A stretch of 64,000 bases of DNA. Origin: Candidatus Poribacteria bacterium (lineage in GTDB: Bacteria; Poribacteria; WGA-4E; WGA-3G). Below, in pieces: positions 1,157-45,122 of this stretch. The notes beneath the pieces were generated by a model, which was given only the letters and a program-made list of their open reading frames with translations, was not told the origin of the DNA and did no database searches. Both the position numbers and the translations under genes were made by a program. Position 1 is the first letter of the stretch; each line of letters starts with the position of its first letter. The stretch spans positions 1,152,001 through 1,216,000 of the forward strand of contig OZ251518.1 in assembly GCA_965242965.1 (NCBI GenBank), given 5' to 3'.

Positions 1157-2293
1157 ATGAATGGACTGATTCAGCGCATCCAAGAATTTCTAAACAGGCC
1201 TGCTTTACCCCTAAGCGGCAGAGAAGTCAGTTTTTTTGAACTTATCACGTTAATCGGGACGTTAGCGGTGTTCGTCGCAGTCGCGGGCTTTTTGCGTCGG
1301 TGGCTCAGTCGTCTCTTTAGCAAGTTGCGGATGCCGGAGAGCACGCAGAACCGTCTGCTCGCGCTTTCGTTCCTCATCGTTATGATTGTCGGTTTCGTGG
1401 TAGGGTTAGAGGTTGCGAACATTAGCATTGGGCAGCTGGAAGCACTCCTAGCCTACGAAATTCCGATTGGAAAAGATAGCAGCTTAGCGGTGGCGAAACT
1501 TTTTTACGGTTGCGTCATCGTCTTTGTCGTGTTTATCCTCTCGAAATACGCGCAGTGGGTTATCCGCGAACAGGTTTTACAAGCGTTCACTATTGATGAG
1601 CACACGCAGTTTATCCTGCTCCGTTTCTTCCACATCGGTGTTGTCGCTATCGGCGTGCTGGTCAGCCTGAATGCCATCGGGTTAGGTTTGACGAACCTCA
1701 CCGTTATCCTGGGTGGCTTGAGTATCGGTATCGGGTTCGGGTTACAGAATATTGCGGCAAACATCTTGTCGGGCATTATCCTGATTTTTGAACGTCCGAT
1801 TAAAATCGGGGATTTGGTGGAAATCATGGATGCGAATATCTTCGGCAGAGTGAATGCAATCAATCTCCGTTCCACCGTTATCGTCGCGCTCGATGAGAAG
1901 GAGATTATCGTGCCGAATTCGCAGCTCGTTACGGAGCCGGTGCATAACCTAACGCACTATAACAGACGTTTTCGGGTGCGGGTTCCGGTGGGTGTCGCCT
2001 ATAGTTCGGACGTGCAGCTTGTGAAAAAGGCGTTATTGGAGGTGGCGCATGCGCATCCGGATGTGATTAAGGCACCTATCCGGGGACAGAAGAACGTCAC
2101 TGCGCCTTTCGTTCGCTTTATTCATTTCGGGGAGTCGTCGTTAGACTTCGAGTTGCTGGCGTGGATACCTGACTCTTTTCAGCGGTTCGATATTGCGAGT
2201 GACTTGCATTTCATGATTTGGGAGAAGTTTAAGGAATGCGAGATTACTATCCCGTTTCCGCAGCGGGATGTGCATCATTTTTATTCGGAGTAA
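1157..2293 (+). CDS. mscS: Small-conductance mechanosensitive channel (MscS family)
   Basis: GIGFGLQNIAANILSGIILIFERPIKIGDLV and IPFPQRDVH motifs; several N-terminal TM helices. Confidence 0.9.
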   Translation: MNGLIQRIQEFLNRPALPLSGREVSFFELITLIGTLAVFVAVAGFLRRWLSRLFSKLRMPESTQNRLLALSFLIVMIVGFVVGLEVANISIGQLEALLAYEIPIGKDSSLAVAKLFYGCVIVFVVFILSKYAQWVIREQVLQAFTIDEHTQFILLRFFHIGVVAIGVLVSLNAIGLGLTNLTVILGGLSIGIGFGLQNIAANILSGIILIFERPIKIGDLVEIMDANIFGRVNAINLRSTVIVALDEKEIIVPNSQLVTEPVHNLTHYNRRFRVRVPVGVAYSSDVQLVKKALLEVAHAHPDVIKAPIRGQKNVTAPFVRFIHFGESSLDFELLAWIPDSFQRFDIASDLHFMIWEKFKECEITIPFPQRDVHHFYSE

Positions 2294-2350
2294 CGAAAAA
2301 GCAGGCAGAATTTGGTATTCTGCCTGCTTCGCCGTTATACCCAATTAACC

Positions 2351-2719
2351 TGACGGTGTTTCATAAATCGCTCAACGTTGCGGTGAAACCCCTCGCCATG
2401 CGTTTTGCTATCAGACCTCCTCACCTCTGTAGGTCAGGCTCGCCCGATCTTGACCCGTTTGTGATCAGGCGAGCACAAACTACAGAAGGGGTGGCGCGCG
2501 CGGAGAAAAACGCCTCCCTCTACCGTAGGGCGAGGGCCTGTCCCTCGCCATCGTCCGCGCACGCCAACGCTCGCGGGGGAAACCCGCTCGGATGCGCGGA
2601 TGGCATCCGAGGGCCCCGCGCTACGGGAAAAATCGAGACCAGGAGGTCGCTCCTCCCCGAAGAATCGAGACCGGGAGGTCGCTCCTACCGGGAAACCATT
2701 GAGATATGAAATACCCTCA
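2351..2719. mobile_element. MITE/REPIN-like composite element with inverted ends
   Basis: TGACGGTGTTTCATAAAT ... ATATGAAATACCCTCA, flanked on both sides by AATTAACC; internal GTAG hairpins. Confidence 0.75.
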
Positions 2720-38964: not shown

Positions 38965-39825
38965 ATGCTCACTCAGGAACAATTCGATTTTTACAACGAA
39001 AACGGCTACATCGGCGTTGAAGCAGTGCTAACCGACGAAGAAGTCCACGCGCTGCGCCGGGTTACCGACGAATTTGTGGAGAAATCCAGGGAAGTTACAG
39101 CACATACCGACATCTTCGATCTGGAGCCGGGGCACACCGCCGCGAACCCGCGCGTGCGCCGCATCAAAAGCCCAGGACTCTACCATACCGTTTATGACAG
39201 CACCCTGCGTCATCCTAAAATTCTGGACATCGTCGCCCAACTCATCGGGCCCGGGATTCGGTATAACGGGCATAAACTGAACATGAAGTATCCCGAATTC
39301 GGCAGTCCGGTGGAGTGGCATCAGGATTGGGCGTTCTACCCGCACACGAACGATGATCTACTCGCTGTCGGGGTAGTCATTGACGATATGACGGTGGAAA
39401 ACGGCGCGCTGATGATTCTTCCCGGTTCGCATAAGGGCCCCACCTTGAATCATCACCAGAACGGCGCGTTTATCGGCGCGGTAACCGAGCCCAACTTCAC
39501 ACCGGAAGGAGCGGTACCCGTTGAATTGAAGGCGGGTGGGATTACCCTCCACCACGTCCGAGCGTTGCACGGTTCTGCACCGAATACCTCCGATAAGCCG
39601 CGGCGTTTGTTGCTTTTCCAATACTGCGCTGTGGATGCGTGGCCCTTGAAGGGGATTCCAGACTGGGATAGTTTCAACGAATTCATCATCCGCGGCGAAC
39701 CGACGAACCAGCCGCGCATGGTTGCAGCACCCGTGCGGATGCCGGAACCCTATTCGGAGAAGAAGGGCTCAATTTATGAAGTGCAATCGCTGCTTGAAAA
39801 TCCGCTCTACGCGCAGCAGCAGTGA
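38965..39825 (+). CDS. Phytanoyl-CoA dioxygenase family (Fe/2OG)
   Basis: WHQD, ENGAL..PGSHK and LHGSAPN..R. Confidence 0.92.
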   Translation: MLTQEQFDFYNENGYIGVEAVLTDEEVHALRRVTDEFVEKSREVTAHTDIFDLEPGHTAANPRVRRIKSPGLYHTVYDSTLRHPKILDIVAQLIGPGIRYNGHKLNMKYPEFGSPVEWHQDWAFYPHTNDDLLAVGVVIDDMTVENGALMILPGSHKGPTLNHHQNGAFIGAVTEPNFTPEGAVPVELKAGGITLHHVRALHGSAPNTSDKPRRLLLFQYCAVDAWPLKGIPDWDSFNEFIIRGEPTNQPRMVAAPVRMPEPYSEKKGSIYEVQSLLENPLYAQQQ

Positions 39826-39840
39826 CAGAAGAAACCGCGC

Positions 39841-40149
39841 CTACGGGTGTCTATTTTGTGGAAATACCGCCGGTACCTCAGCGAAAGCTTTCTGATTCAC
39901 AAATTTCGGCGGAGCGGCCACGTCGCAGACTTCAGCTATTTTCCACTGGTGATGGACACCGCGCACGCTTTGAAACTTATAGATGCAACGCTCTTCCGGT
40001 GAAAAGAACCATACCCACTCAACTTCCGGCGGCACTTCGTCGTTTTGGAGATGAAAAACCGCGCGCTCAAGAGTGACAGCCCAGGCTTGTACCTGCGGGT
40101 GAACCTTTCTCACAGGGAACATGAGTGGCAAAATATCTATAAATTTCAT
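39841..40149 (-). CDS. Hypothetical protein
   Basis: 102-aa ORF in non-repeat DNA; its stop comes from a REP GTAG. Confidence 0.45.
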   Translation of the reverse strand: MKFIDILPLMFPVRKVHPQVQAWAVTLERAVFHLQNDEVPPEVEWVWFFSPEERCIYKFQSVRGVHHQWKIAEVCDVAAPPKFVNQKAFAEVPAVFPQNRHP

Positions 40150-40424
40150 ATTTTTGTTGTTCGCAAGGCGTTCGGTTTTTCGTTATTCGCGAGGCGTTCG
40201 GTTAGGTTTATTGGTATAATGCCGTTTGTTGACGTAGAACGGAAATCGAGACCGGGAGGTCTCTCCTACCAAGAGGGCAGGCGGTGTAATGCCGTTTGTC
40301 GACGTAAAGCCGTCTCCGCCGTTGGCGATGACTACATTTTTAAAGATTCAGGTAGGCGCGCCTTGGAAGCGCGCCTACCTGAAAATCAAGAAAAGACAGG
40401 CAAAGCCTATCCTTCCGTGCCGCG

Positions 40425-41645
40425 CTACTTCGCGACTTCCGCTTTGAATCCCGGGTGCGCGCCAGACACTGCCTTAATCAAGGCATCTGCTGTCACTTTA
40501 CCCTTCACAACTTTTACTACAGCCGTCTGGTCTGCGTAAGAGATGCTGACAACCTCGATGACACCAGGCACCTCGCAGAGGGCGGCTTCCACCTTCGCGG
40601 GACATGCTTCGCATGTCATACCGCTCACCTTCAGCGTCACCTTCTTGACTTCCGGCATCACCACTTCCGCAGTGAAACCTGCAGCTTTAACAGCGTTCGT
40701 CAAATCGGCAGCGGTGACTTTGCCTTTCTCAACCTTTACCACCGCGGTATTATCCGCAGTCGAAACGCTGATAACATCCGTGACACCGGCAACCTTACCG
40801 AGAGCGGCTTCCACCTTCGCGGGACATGCCTCGCACGTCATACCGGTTACTTTCAGCGTCACCTGCTTAATTTCCGGCATCACCACTTCCGCGGTGAAAC
40901 CTGCGGCTTTGACAGCGTTCGTCAGATCGGCAGCAGTGACTTTGCCTTTCTCAACCTTCACCACCGCGGTATTATCCGCAGTCGAAACGCTGATAACATC
41001 CGTGACACCAGCAACCTTACCGAGAGCAGCCTCCACCTTCGCGGGACATGCCTCGCACGTCATACCGGTTACCTTCAGCGTCATCTTGTCCATCTGCATA
41101 ACTTTAGCGGGAAACCCTGCGGCTTTGACAGCGTTCGTCAAATCCTCGGCGGTGACTTTGCCTTTCTCAACCTTCACCACCGCGGTATTGCTGTCTGTAG
41201 AGACGCTAATGACTTCCGTGACACCAGTGACTTTACTGAGTGCATCCTGCACTTTACTTGTGCAAGCCCCTCACGTCATCCCCTTCACGGCAAGCGTCAC
41301 CTTTTCGGTAGCCGGCGCGGGCATATCCACCGTCGCTTTGAAACGCGGGTCTGCTTCAACGGCCGCGATAAGCGCAGCGGTATCGACTTTCCCTGTTTCT
41401 ACCTTCACAACAGCCTTGTTATCGGCTGATGATACACTGACAACTTCCGTGACACCGGCGACTTTACTGAGTGCACCCTGCACTGCAGAAGTACATCCAC
41501 CTCACGTCATCCCTGTCACGGTAAGCGTCACTTTTTCAACGGCTGCTTCCGAGGTGGCATCCGCGGAATCGGTTGCCATCACCTGAGCACCCATTGATAA
41601 TGCAAAAGCGATGATGCAAATCAACGCTAACTTTGCAATATACAT
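40425..41645 (-). CDS. Exported five-HMA-domain selenoprotein (2x MTUxxC, 3x MTCxxC), 406 aa
   Basis: AAGGAGG-ATG, signal peptide, in-frame TGA at 41502-41504 and 41271-41273 at the first Cys position of the HMA motif, each followed by a SECIS-like hairpin. Confidence 0.88.
41239..41253 (-). promoter_or_regulatory. Bacterial SECIS-like hairpin 2
   Basis: AGTGCA-GGA-TGCACT; loop starts 23 nt after the UGA. Confidence 0.75.
41470..41484 (-). promoter_or_regulatory. Bacterial SECIS-like hairpin 1
   Basis: AGTGCA-GGG-TGCACT; loop starts 23 nt after the UGA. Confidence 0.75.
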
Positions 41646-41681
41646 GAGGAATTCCTCCTTAGAATAATTTGATTGTTAATT

Positions 41682-41710
41682 AGTTTAACAAATGTGCAAC
41701 TATTTGTCAA
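41682..41710 (-). promoter_or_regulatory. sigma70 promoter of the HMA gene
   Basis: TTGACA-17 nt-TAAACT with extended TG. Confidence 0.7.
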
Positions 41711-41728
41711 GTTTTTCGGAGAAAAAAA

Positions 41729-42034
41729 TTATCTCCGCCGATATCCCGCTTGCTCCGACAGCGCGTATACCTGCGGATTCTTCATAAAACGGATGTCTTG
41801 CCCGCGCAACTGCGAGCCATATCGCTTCTCTAAAAATCGGATGCGTTCCTGCCGGTCTGGGAGCGGCACCCGCTTCGGAGCCTGCATCTTCAACAACTCC
41901 TCGCGCGACAATTTTCTGGGTTGCTGCTTGTCTCCATAATAGCATTTCGGACAGAGCGGATAGCGCGGATAACGGAGTCGTCCGCATTTGCATCGCGCTT
42001 TTCCATCGCTGCCGCCGAGAACCTCTTTATTCAT
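41729..42034 (-). CDS. Small basic CxC..CxxC zinc-finger-like protein
   Basis: CKC..CPKC; ATGA overlap with the upstream nuclease gene. Confidence 0.6.
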   Translation of the reverse strand: MNKEVLGGSDGKARCKCGRLRYPRYPLCPKCYYGDKQQPRKLSREELLKMQAPKRVPLPDRQERIRFLEKRYGSQLRGQDIRFMKNPQVYALSEQAGYRRR

Positions 42035-42789
42035 GCGTTTCCCCTCCGCTTCCGATGCACATCTAAAAAGGTAAACACGTTTTGGATGCGCTGAATCTGT
42101 TTTTGAAAGACGGACGCCCGTTCAAATTGCAGTTTTGCGGCGGCACTATCCCGTTTCGCGACGAGGGATGCGAACACTTCGTCGTAATGTCCCTCCAGCA
42201 AGCCGAGGATATCGGCTATCATGTCGTGATACGCTTCGCGTGTGACATACCCCGCGCACGGCGCGTCGCACCGTTTGATCTGGTAACTGAAGCAGGGACG
42301 GAACGTCGGGCATGGGGTAATCGCGCCTTCGCACGTCCGAATCGGGAAGATGCGGTGGAAAACGTCAACCGCCTCCGCTGTCCATCGCCGGCTGGAAAAC
42401 GGACCGAAATACCTCGCGCCATCAACTTCTTCTTTCTCGGAAACTTGCTCTACAAGCGGAAAATCTTCTCCCACATCTATCCGAATATACCACGATTTCC
42501 GTCCATATTTCAGGGCAGAATTGTAGGTAGGCTGATGCGCTTGAATCAACCGCGATTCCAGGAAGAGTGCCTCCTGTTCCGAGCGGCAGACCTGGTATCG
42601 CACGTCGGTTATCCAACGGACGAGCCGTTTGATTTTGGCGGGGCGGCTTTTGTTTTTGTGAAGATACGAACGCACCCGTTTCCGCAGGCATTTCGCCTTG
42701 CCGATGTAGAGGATTTGGCCGGAAGCACCCCGAAAAAAGTAGACACCGGGTTCCGTTGGCACATCTTGGATCATTTCTTGCGTCAACAT
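42031..42789 (-). CDS. UvrC N-terminal-like (Cho-like) GIY-YIG nuclease with UVR domain
   Basis: PGVY..YIGKAKCLRKRVRSY, YFGPF, Cys cluster and UVR LQFERA; lacks the UvrC C-terminal half. Confidence 0.88.
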   Translation of the reverse strand: MLTQEMIQDVPTEPGVYFFRGASGQILYIGKAKCLRKRVRSYLHKNKSRPAKIKRLVRWITDVRYQVCRSEQEALFLESRLIQAHQPTYNSALKYGRKSWYIRIDVGEDFPLVEQVSEKEEVDGARYFGPFSSRRWTAEAVDVFHRIFPIRTCEGAITPCPTFRPCFSYQIKRCDAPCAGYVTREAYHDMIADILGLLEGHYDEVFASLVAKRDSAAAKLQFERASVFQKQIQRIQNVFTFLDVHRKRRGNA

Positions 42790-44549: not shown

Positions 44550-45122
44550 ATGAAACCCAAATTAACCCTCTACATTTTCATCGCCTTCATCGCGCTAACT
44601 GGCTTTACTTGCGAAGAAACAGAACCGCTCGTGCAAGTCCCAGTCACCGAAGAACTTGCCGCGGGCGAAGGGTTGAAAATCGGCATTCAAGCCCCCGAGT
44701 TCTCGCTACTTGATGCCGATGGGAATCCCTACACCCTGGCAGACTATCTCGGCCAAAAAGTAGTGTTGGTATTCTATCGCTTCGGCACGTGAGGCTTCTG
44801 TCAAGCGCAGCTCGGTGAGTTGCAAACCGGCTATGAAGCCATCCAAGCAGCAGGTGCCGAAATTATCGCTGTCAGCGCGGATACCCCAACGACAACGGCT
44901 CTCACGCGAAAGACTGTCCAGATAACCTATCCGTTGCTCTCCGACAAGGCGACAGTGGCGATTACTGCCTATAATGTTCTTGACCCGGGCAATCCGCAAA
45001 TCGCGAAACCTGCGACGTATCTGATTGATGAAAACGGGATAATCCGGTGGAAGTTTCTTGATGTGCAGTTCGGAAAACGGCTAACCTCGGCGGAAATTGT
45101 TGCGGAATTGCAAAAGTTGTAG
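44550..45122 (+). CDS. AhpC/TSA peroxiredoxin-like selenoprotein (UxxC), 190 aa
   Basis: AGGAG-ATG; APEFSL..LVFYRFGT-TGA-GFCQAQLGEL..PATYLIDENGIIRW in a single frame; SECIS-like hairpin at 44807-44823. Confidence 0.88.
44807..44823 (+). promoter_or_regulatory. Bacterial SECIS-like hairpin
   Basis: GCAGCTC-GGT-GAGTTGC; loop starts 21 nt after the UGA at 44790-44792. Confidence 0.75.

Follow-up and report, generated by a model that had tools for sequence, protein, structure and literature searches.

A predicted exported five-domain HMA protein of Candidatus Poribacteria with two UGA-encoded selenocysteines, each followed by its own SECIS-like hairpin

The window analysed here, a 64,000-nucleotide stretch of a Candidatus Poribacteria contig (OZ251518.1), carries on its reverse strand a gene for a protein with five HMA domains (Table 1). 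Translation through two in-frame TGA codons gives a product of 406 residues. Under translation table 11 the frame is interrupted at both codons, so that the ORF list holds only pieces of it (e.g., 40425..41252). A preliminary description of this DNA had proposed one frame running from a good Shine-Dalgarno sequence and an ATG at 41645 through a signal peptide and five HMA repeats, with TGA at the first metal-binding Cys of repeats 1 and 2 and GMTCEAC in repeats 3-5. It proved right in each detail checked: the Shine-Dalgarno sequence, ATG, frame and domains were all found, the metal-site codons were read directly and the signal peptide was recognized by eye.

Table 1. Features of the five-HMA gene, in window positions.
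Feature	Position	Strand	Details
Promoter-like site	41682..41710	(-)	TTGACA, 17-nt spacer, TAAACT, TG before second hexamer; 10/12 matches
Shine-Dalgarno AAGGAGG	41654..41660	(-)	8 nt upstream of ATG; kept in relatives
Coding sequence	40425..41645	(-)	single frame, 406 codons + TAG; domain string U-U-C-C-C; direct reading
Start codon ATG	41645-41643	(-)	read directly
Predicted signal peptide, residues 1 to ~24	41574..41645	(-)	MYIAK / LALICIIAFAL / SMGAQVMA; sequence reading and homologue comparison
HMA domain 1, residues 36-107	41325..41540	(-)	metal site U48-G-G-C51; Pfam, model
UGA 1 (predicted Sec 48)	41502..41504	(-)	context GMT-U-GGC
SECIS-like hairpin 1, AGUGCA-GGG-UGCACU	41470..41484	(-)	arms 41484-41479 and 41475-41470, loop 41478-41476
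HMA domain 2, residues 113-182	41100..41309	(-)	metal site U125-G-A-C128; Pfam, model
UGA 2 (predicted Sec 125)	41271..41273	(-)	context GMT-U-GAC
SECIS-like hairpin 2, AGUGCA-GGA-UGCACU	41239..41253	(-)	arms 41253-41248 and 41244-41239, loop 41247-41245
HMA domain 3, residues 185-255	40881..41093	(-)	CEAC site, no hairpin; sequence, model
HMA domain 4, residues 259-329	40659..40871	(-)	CEAC site, no hairpin; sequence
HMA domain 5, residues 333-404	40434..40649	(-)	CEAC site, no hairpin; sequence, tree
Stop codon TAG	40427-40425	(-)	read directly
Two terminator-like hairpins 3' of stop	40347..40416	(-)	first 40416-40390, T-rich tail; second 40383-40347, perfect 15-bp stem; read directly

The promoter-like site, the Shine-Dalgarno sequence and the terminator-like hairpins enclose the five-HMA gene alone. 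An alignment of 25 loci shows the same arrangement upstream of the homologous gene in most of them (TTGACA or TTGCCA, about 17 nt, TGnTAAAAT, then AAGGAGG), and a conserved palindrome or MerR-type operator was not identified in these aligned promoter regions. We predict that the gene is transcribed from a strong, apparently constitutive promoter. That it is intact and monocistronic is very probable, a judgement that we make jointly for the whole of the explanation developed below.

The predicted protein has a hydrophobic N-terminus that is connected to the HMA domains by a short acidic linker. The lipobox position is occupied by Ala, where homologues (...AFAFMVGC/G) have Cys at the same place. 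From the N-terminus, read by eye and compared with that of the lipoprotein homologues, we predict that the product is exported and that the signal peptide is probably cut by signal peptidase I after the AQVMA region. The Pfam model for HMA (PF00403) matches in five stretches with 161.3 bits (cut-off 24.8), thus passing the gathering score. The post-motif segments of domains 3 and 4 are identical, and domain 5 falls in a separate clade of array-terminal Cys domains (support 100/99).

A single-sequence AlphaFold model (mean pLDDT 82.1, pTM 0.41) contains five beta-alpha-beta-beta-alpha-beta units whose mutual arrangement is not fixed; residues 1-34 are disordered in it (pLDDT <50). The pairs U48/C51 and U125/C128 stand before the helices at 51-60 and 126-137, so that each predicted selenocysteine (Sec) lies in the loop preceding helix 1 of its domain. 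The HMA fold is supported by matches to domains of MerP, CopZ and ATP7B, with TM scores up to 0.92. The nearest solved single domains are those of MerP (1osd and 1afi, TM 0.91 and 0.87, 45-48 % identity) and the nearest solved arrays are the tandem domains of ATP7B and CopA; the CxxC columns of the window protein align with those of the ATP7B domains.

By membership the gene is a generic HMA protein, resembling MerP and NF041115 without belonging to either, because its single domains fall below every curated NCBIfam cut-off. The best match among selenoprotein-specific models is NF041115 (UxxU_metal_bind), at 203 bits for the whole protein, a figure that sums five repeats; taken one by one, domains reach 48.8, 57.5 and 49.0 bits, well short of the cut-off of 95, and the motif is UxxC rather than UxxU. 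Like the window protein, members of NF041115 are HMA-type domains with Sec at the metal site. They carry two Sec in one UxxU motif, whereas the window protein would have one Sec in each of two domains and a separate hairpin for either. The models for CopZ metallochaperones (NF047957, NF033794, NF033795) give 36-58 bits per domain against cut-offs of 85-95, and the signal peptide and five domains set the protein apart from small cytosolic single-domain chaperones. The MerT/CopZ fusion selenoprotein, for which an NCBIfam model exists (NF045683), is matched at 127 bits against 375 and in its HMA part only, and MerT was not found in the genome. Arrays of HMA domains also occur in copper ATPases (ATP7B, CopA, and as a Sec form the UxxC cation ATPase), which share the beads-on-a-string repeats and UxxC at the same site; in contrast to these, the window protein lacks an ATPase body, is predicted to leave the cytosol, and would combine Sec with Cys sites along one array.

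Each of the two TGA codons is followed by a hairpin. The core GUGCA-GGN-UGCAC begins 18 nt after each TGA and is flanked by an A...T pair, giving a stem of 5-6 bp and a 3-nt loop (GGG or GGA) whose first base lies 23 nt from the TGA in both cases. Cys domains 3-5 read GTGGAG or GTGGAA...GC(T/C)GC(T/C)C at the same position, and there the stem cannot form. The coordinates thus confirm an earlier reading in which the hairpin was confined to the TGA repeats, with the loop 23 nt past the TGA both times. Bacterial SECIS elements are hairpins that lie shortly 3' of a UGA, with a G opening a small apical loop; both hairpins agree with these features in position, loop size and first loop base. An Rfam scan of positions 39500-42500 (E<=10) returned only chance hits below gathering scores, and no SECIS family.

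The contrast between the two kinds of domain extends to relatives. Across 34 loci (relatives and window), the full 5-bp core is present in 77 of 81 U domains, with a 4-bp version and a 5-nt loop in the other four and a broken stem in none; among 13 C domains the full core is absent, one has the 4-bp version with a 5-nt loop and 12 are broken. These counts do not represent independent events, because the genomes behind them are kin. The first loop base is G in all 81 U domains. Seven of the 13 C domains retain the peptide VQxAL and have lost the hairpin through a silent change (GTG>GTT, GTG>GTA or GAT>GAC). Alignment places a Cys opposite U in 13 domains, paralogous or orthologous, and in relatives from the PDB; the comparison of related genomes suggested at the outset finds TGA aligned with TGA or TGY at the same codon. 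Where Sec and Cys domains of one gene differ in this way in their hairpins, another explanation is hard to find.

Silent sites provide a further measure of constraint. In 58 distinct Sec-domain sequences the hairpin codons at +7 to +10 are GTG (58/58), CAG (58/58), GAT (38 of 38 Asp codons) and GCA (58/58), and in the same sequences other Val codons that are invariant in the protein (-5, +23, +32 and +39) have a third-position entropy of 1.0-1.8 bits. The RNAalifold consensus structure for 54 distinct 57-nt stretches is the GUGCA-GGN-UGCAC hairpin. No compensatory covariation is present in this alignment; as the stem is invariant, covariation could not appear, and silent-site entropy was used as the test instead. 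An alternative helix, UGUACC/GGUGCA, is compatible with 48-54 of the 54 sequences at five of its six pairs and is often favoured by single-sequence RNAfold, but it gives no reason for silent sites in the 3' arm to be frozen. Judged from silent-site invariance and from loss in the Cys domains, selection acts strongly on the hairpin as RNA where a domain has Sec, and the hairpin decays where a domain has Cys.

The genome encodes the machinery for Sec insertion. A search for selA, selB, selC and selD, proposed in the preliminary description, identified all four: selA at 518 bits, selB as a wing-3 domain inside a 653-aa frame, a tRNA-Sec (anticodon tca) that directly adjoins selB, and selD at 358 bits with a single in-frame TGA of its own. 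Just 10 sites (20 strand hits) in the whole 5.7 Mb genome carry the 13-nt hairpin core GTGCANNNTGCAC, and four of them lie 14-18 nt after an in-frame TGA within a selenoprotein-type motif, namely in the two UxxC HMA domains of the five-HMA gene, in a UxxC HMA at the C-terminus of a WD40-like protein and in a UGSC protein. Since the core is rare genome-wide and each of the 81 UxxC domains found in 34 loci has the pair, the pairing of TGA and hairpin in the window gene exceeds chance.

Hairpins of the same kind follow the UGA of other predicted selenoprotein genes in this organism. GCUCC-GGG-GGAGC lies 3' of the UGA in selD, and a Prx-like UxxC gene in the window (TGA at 44790) has GCAGCUC-GGU-GAGUUGC. 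Taken over the selD, Prx-like, UGSC and WD40-HMA genes, stems are 5-8 bp, loops are GGG, GGU, GUA or GGA, and the loop starts 17-23 nt past the UGA. The hairpins of the five-HMA gene thus fit the organism's own SECIS style. We infer that Sec is inserted at both UGAs.

Genes for related proteins are widespread in the lineage. Of 61 related genomes searched with tolerance for stops, 58 gave HMA matches at E<=1e-10, and almost all of these carry a single in-frame TGA. Thirty fetched loci contain 59 domains with TGA at the first Cys of GMTxxxC and a frame open on both sides, and six domains with Cys. The usual form is a pair of adjacent single-domain Sec genes with lipoprotein-type signal peptides (...MVGC/G and ...VVAC/A). 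This two-gene cassette lies between PhyH and GIY-YIG genes, in a housekeeping neighbourhood that is kept across genera. The neighbours encode PRPP synthase, a glycosyltransferase, the PhyH, GIY-YIG and LamG proteins and an unknown 101-aa Cys-rich protein; the Sec-containing Prx-like gene also belongs to this conserved neighbourhood, in which we identified neither a metal transporter nor a metal sensor.

Fused arrays are present in 10 of 176 genomes of a phylum sample, called by matches at E<=1e-32, a threshold that only multi-domain matches reach. Besides UUCCC in the window, the domain strings are UUUC (G002, G010, G127 and G165), UUUCC (G004) and UUUUC (G150 and G152); G081 has a cytochrome-type protein with two U domains and G001 an array fragment at a contig end. 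The final domain of every array is Cys, and all arrays have non-lipoprotein signal peptides. In G002, which is of the window's genus, and in G010 the array sits in the chromosomal slot of the two-gene cassette. The window gene resembles the single-domain lipoprotein pair in domain family, UGA position, hairpin and PhyH/GIY-YIG slot, and its N-terminus is homologous to that of the MYIA-type lipoprotein of the pair. Unlike the pair, it is fused and amplified to five domains, of which three are Cys, and it has Ala instead of the lipobox Cys.

A tree of 84 post-motif domain segments (midpoint root, 56 columns) needs at least four switches between Sec and Cys, with Cys clades nested in Sec clades; for the window's genus, e.g., a clade supported at 98/93 falls within one supported at 100/97. 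With such a root and so few columns, a change from Sec to Cys is the likely, though unproven, direction. Domain trees of 56 columns give no resolution of the order in which ancestral paralogues were fused. The ancestral state was probably a pair of single-domain Sec lipoprotein genes, which gave rise to the array, without change of chromosomal site, as genes fused and domains were duplicated; subsequently, some domains would have been converted from Sec to Cys, with decay of their hairpins.

Our preferred explanation, which we hold to be very probable as a whole, is thus an exported five-HMA-domain protein in which two UGAs are decoded as Sec, formed by fusion and duplication and acting in the binding or buffering of soft metals. 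Each hairpin would recruit SelB with GTP and Sec-tRNA(Sec) to a ribosome paused at the UGA, in competition with release factor 2. In an unfolded state the protein would pass through the Sec translocon, and it would then be cut. Because the lipobox Cys of the relatives is lost, the mature protein is predicted to be soluble in the periplasm rather than lipid-anchored. There its beta1-alpha1 loops would offer five two-coordinate sites, two of them Se/S and three S/S, for the binding or buffering of soft metal ions, most likely Cu(I), with Hg(II), Ag(I) and Cd(II) as possible alternatives. Copper is favoured over mercury as the genome encodes a Cu-type P1B ATPase (520.9 bits), MerT has no match in this genome (94.7 % complete), and the best MerA-like match in it, at 372 bits, stays below the cut-off of 454. 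This choice of metal is tentative, given that the conserved neighbourhood holds no metal transporter or sensor gene.

Read-through at UGA may have a cost in yield. Recoding of UGA in E. coli is given as 30-40 % (PMC4513850); at this rate per codon, two UGAs would leave about a tenth of the product at full length, and four about one or two per cent. The low yield from two UGAs is a plausible reason for conversion of Sec to Cys in arrays. More tentatively, the arrays may be a running experiment in which a Sec codon and its own SECIS are kept or lost together, domain by domain. Sec would be ancestral, and C-terminal duplicates would have moved to Cys because each extra UGA multiplies the loss of full-length product. 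In these sponge symbionts the product would act outside the cytoplasm as a metal sponge of high capacity, made up of selenolate and thiolate sites. We regard this extended reading as possible, with the odds somewhat against it.

The protein could be a real exported protein with two Sec in which UxxC and CxxC serve as a redox couple rather than as metal ligands, exchanging selenenylsulfide and disulfide, e.g., to reduce a periplasmic substrate. Review tables place most catalogued prokaryotic selenoproteins among redox proteins with UxxC or CxxU, the neighbourhood has a Sec-containing Prx-like gene and no metal gene, and MerP has been crystallised in an oxidised form (title of 1osd). Yet all relatives in sequence and fold are metal-binding HMA domains (MerP, CopZ, Cu-ATPase), the complete GM(T)xxxC metal-loop signature is retained, and the reviews place Sec-containing HMA, MerT and ATPase proteins under metal handling. 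Thus, we consider a redox role unlikely and favour metal binding.

A MerP-like part in mercury detoxification, in which Hg(II) would be passed to a MerT-type importer, we consider improbable. MerP (1afi, 1osd; periplasmic Hg(II) binding) shares with the window protein an exported HMA fold and the GMTCxxC loop, it is the nearest single-domain solved structure by identity, and a 'MerP' selenoprotein is listed for ocean metagenomes (PMC2398784). MerP, however, has one domain, whereas the window protein has five, two of them with Sec, and single domains of the latter score 36.5-53.6 bits against the MerP cut-off of 92.55 (TIGR02052). A mer operon context is absent, the genome having no MerT match and only the MerA-like protein below cut-off. 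The gene's surroundings are the housekeeping neighbourhood conserved across genera, and its promoter has no conserved MerR-type operator.

That the gene is decaying, its TGAs acting as genuine stops and its products being fragments only (e.g., the 275-aa ORF with a GTG start given by gene callers), is highly improbable. Gene callers do split the gene, and database entries for the protein and its relatives start at MQxALSKV, just past the last TGA. Against this, 81 domains from 34 loci share the position of the TGA and show neither further stops nor frameshifts, signal peptides, Shine-Dalgarno sites and promoters are intact, and only where a TGA precedes the hairpin are its silent sites frozen. 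A product of 275 aa would begin inside helix 1 of domain 2 and have no signal peptide. The preliminary description had named the gathering of other stops and frameshifts in homologues as a sign of a pseudogene; the reconstructed genes of relatives are clean in this respect, with ATG starts, Shine-Dalgarno sites and signal peptides.

Sequencing or assembly error, or genome-wide reassignment of TGA, can be practically dismissed: we found no points in support, contigs of four independent studies and the relatives agree on the codons, and TGA ends 384 of 1497 stop-to-stop frames of >=400 codons in the genome as well as three Pfam-supported genes of the window (PhyH, GIY-YIG and LamG). Assembled contigs from four runs of these four studies cover the gene, and among the differences listed none falls at either TGA or hairpin. 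The contig of run X9, which spans 41147-41800, has all six of its differences elsewhere, one being a silent change in the codon after UGA 2. In run X10 one joint skips 420 nt between repeats, which probably reflects the repeats, and over some of the repeated Cys-domain sequence the contigs are short or map to more than one place. The stretch occurs in public runs of which several bear the label sponge metagenome; there are no RNA runs among those listed as containing it.

Proteins of this general kind have been catalogued before. The statement, in the preliminary description, that single-Sec MerP- or HMA-like proteins had been predicted earlier was right: a table of selenoproteins from the GOS metagenome includes 'MerP' (PMC2398784), and NF041115 and the UxxC cation ATPase are listed in PMC13188914. 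Tables of PMC13188914 and PMC9312934 give the NF041115 metal-binding (seleno)protein as 'putative mercuric reductase', UxxU, with two Sec. We found no description of a stand-alone exported UxxC HMA array, of a mixed Sec/Cys array or of a Poribacteria selenoprotein of such a kind in the literature searched, including passages of PMC13188914, PMC9312934, PMC2398784, PMC12013277, PMC13326102 and bioRxiv 10.1101/2022.07.06.499078; supplementary tables, which lay outside the search, may list such genes. Thus, Sec-HMA proteins are already catalogued as predictions, and what is new is the fused, amplified and partly reverted form.

In public gene calls the protein is represented only by a fragment beginning past the last UGA, as are all its close relatives, and no such entry bears a name. 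A conserved family of predicted exported selenoproteins from a major phylum of sponge symbionts is therefore invisible in databases, and its annotation calls for correction. Sec sites with hairpins beside Cys sites without them, in one polypeptide, form a natural matched control for what a bacterial SECIS needs, down to the single silent changes that accompany loss of Sec. Sec and Cys versions of one metal site in the same protein also allow a direct comparison of affinity and redox behaviour, and several independent Sec/Cys switches in one array family are relevant to the reasons for which Sec is retained at some sites and replaced at others. The window gene points, moreover, to relatives with four Sec codons in one gene. 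A 2026 review counts 119 prokaryotic selenoprotein families, with one Sec each and two to three in a small subset; the arrays of G150 and G152, with four Sec codons and four hairpins in one ORF, exceed this number.

The arrays of fused HMA domains in two related genomes carry more selenocysteine (Sec) codons than the window's own gene, with four in-frame TGAs within a single 406-codon gene (domain string UUUUC, where U and C denote domains with UxxC and CxxC metal sites), and the full hairpin core is present at every one of the four. For prokaryotic families a 2026 review gives 2-3 Sec per protein, fewer than in these arrays.

Other genes of the window's genome also combine an in-frame TGA with a hairpin. 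In a gene for a WD40-like protein with a C-terminal UxxC HMA domain, the hairpin and its spacing from the UGA are identical to those of the main HMA gene, and a second TGA, 3' of the HMA domain, looks like a true stop. A stop-tolerant search of related genomes recovered counterparts in frames of ~530-590 aa, each with one TGA. Two U domains of the same HMA type also occur in a cytochrome-c-motif protein of another relative (G081, locus L065). The gene for a UGSC-motif protein, from an already known family of predicted selenoproteins, has an 8-bp hairpin (AUCGUGCA-GUA-UGCACGAU) that begins 11 nt past the TGA, with the core at 14 nt and the loop at 19 nt; the core is that of the main HMA gene. 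In the same genome selD, too, encodes a selenoprotein, and has its own hairpin with a GGG loop.

Features discussed, in window coordinates unless a contig (G000:C1, window's own genome) or locus is named
Feature	Position	Strand	Remarks
Alternative helix, two copies in main HMA gene	41493-41479; 41262-41246	-	same place in relatives
Prx-like (AhpC/TSA) protein, 190 aa	44550-45122	+	unannotated; in-frame TGA 44790-44792
Eco57I-type restriction-modification methylase, 1007 aa	35795-38818	-	between glycosyltransferase and PhyH genes
Basic Cys-rich protein (CKC…CPKC), 101 aa	41729-42034	-	overlaps GIY-YIG gene end by 4 nt
UUUUC array, L062 (G150)	1471-2691		
UUUUC array, L063 (G152)	1177-2397		
WD40-like protein with UxxC HMA domain	G000:C1:4286802-4288010 (outside window)	+	GMT-U-GAC
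UGSC-motif protein	G000:C1 about 1927131 (outside window)	+	…GLAD-U-GSC…; TGA and hairpin
selD	G000:C1:58854-59813	+	in-frame Sec codon, …KCAG-U-ASK…

Base pairing is possible between the Cys and Thr codons 3' of the UGA (mostly TGT ACC) and the SECIS hairpin's 5' arm (GGUGCA), giving an alternative helix; the two structures are mutually exclusive. Five of the six pairs are sequence-compatible in 48-54 of 54 sequences, and the codons involved are biased at silent sites (TGT 54/58, ACC 39/44).

The Prx-like protein probably acts as a thiol peroxidase or oxidoreductase that contains Sec. Its sequence reads FGT-U-GFC at the in-frame UGA, 3' of which stands the hairpin GCAGCUC-GGU-GAGUUGC, and the N-terminus (…ALTGFTC) resembles a lipoprotein-type signal peptide. 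In relatives the gene is split between two ORFs, which fall into clusters cl9 and cl6.

The methylase gene appears to have been inserted into a region whose synteny is otherwise conserved, because none of the ten relatives' loci compared has any gene in the glycosyltransferase-PhyH gap. The Cys-rich protein had no matches in Pfam or NCBIfam. Its gene is kept in 5 of 11 compared loci, there directly upstream of the Sec-HMA gene(s) on the same strand.
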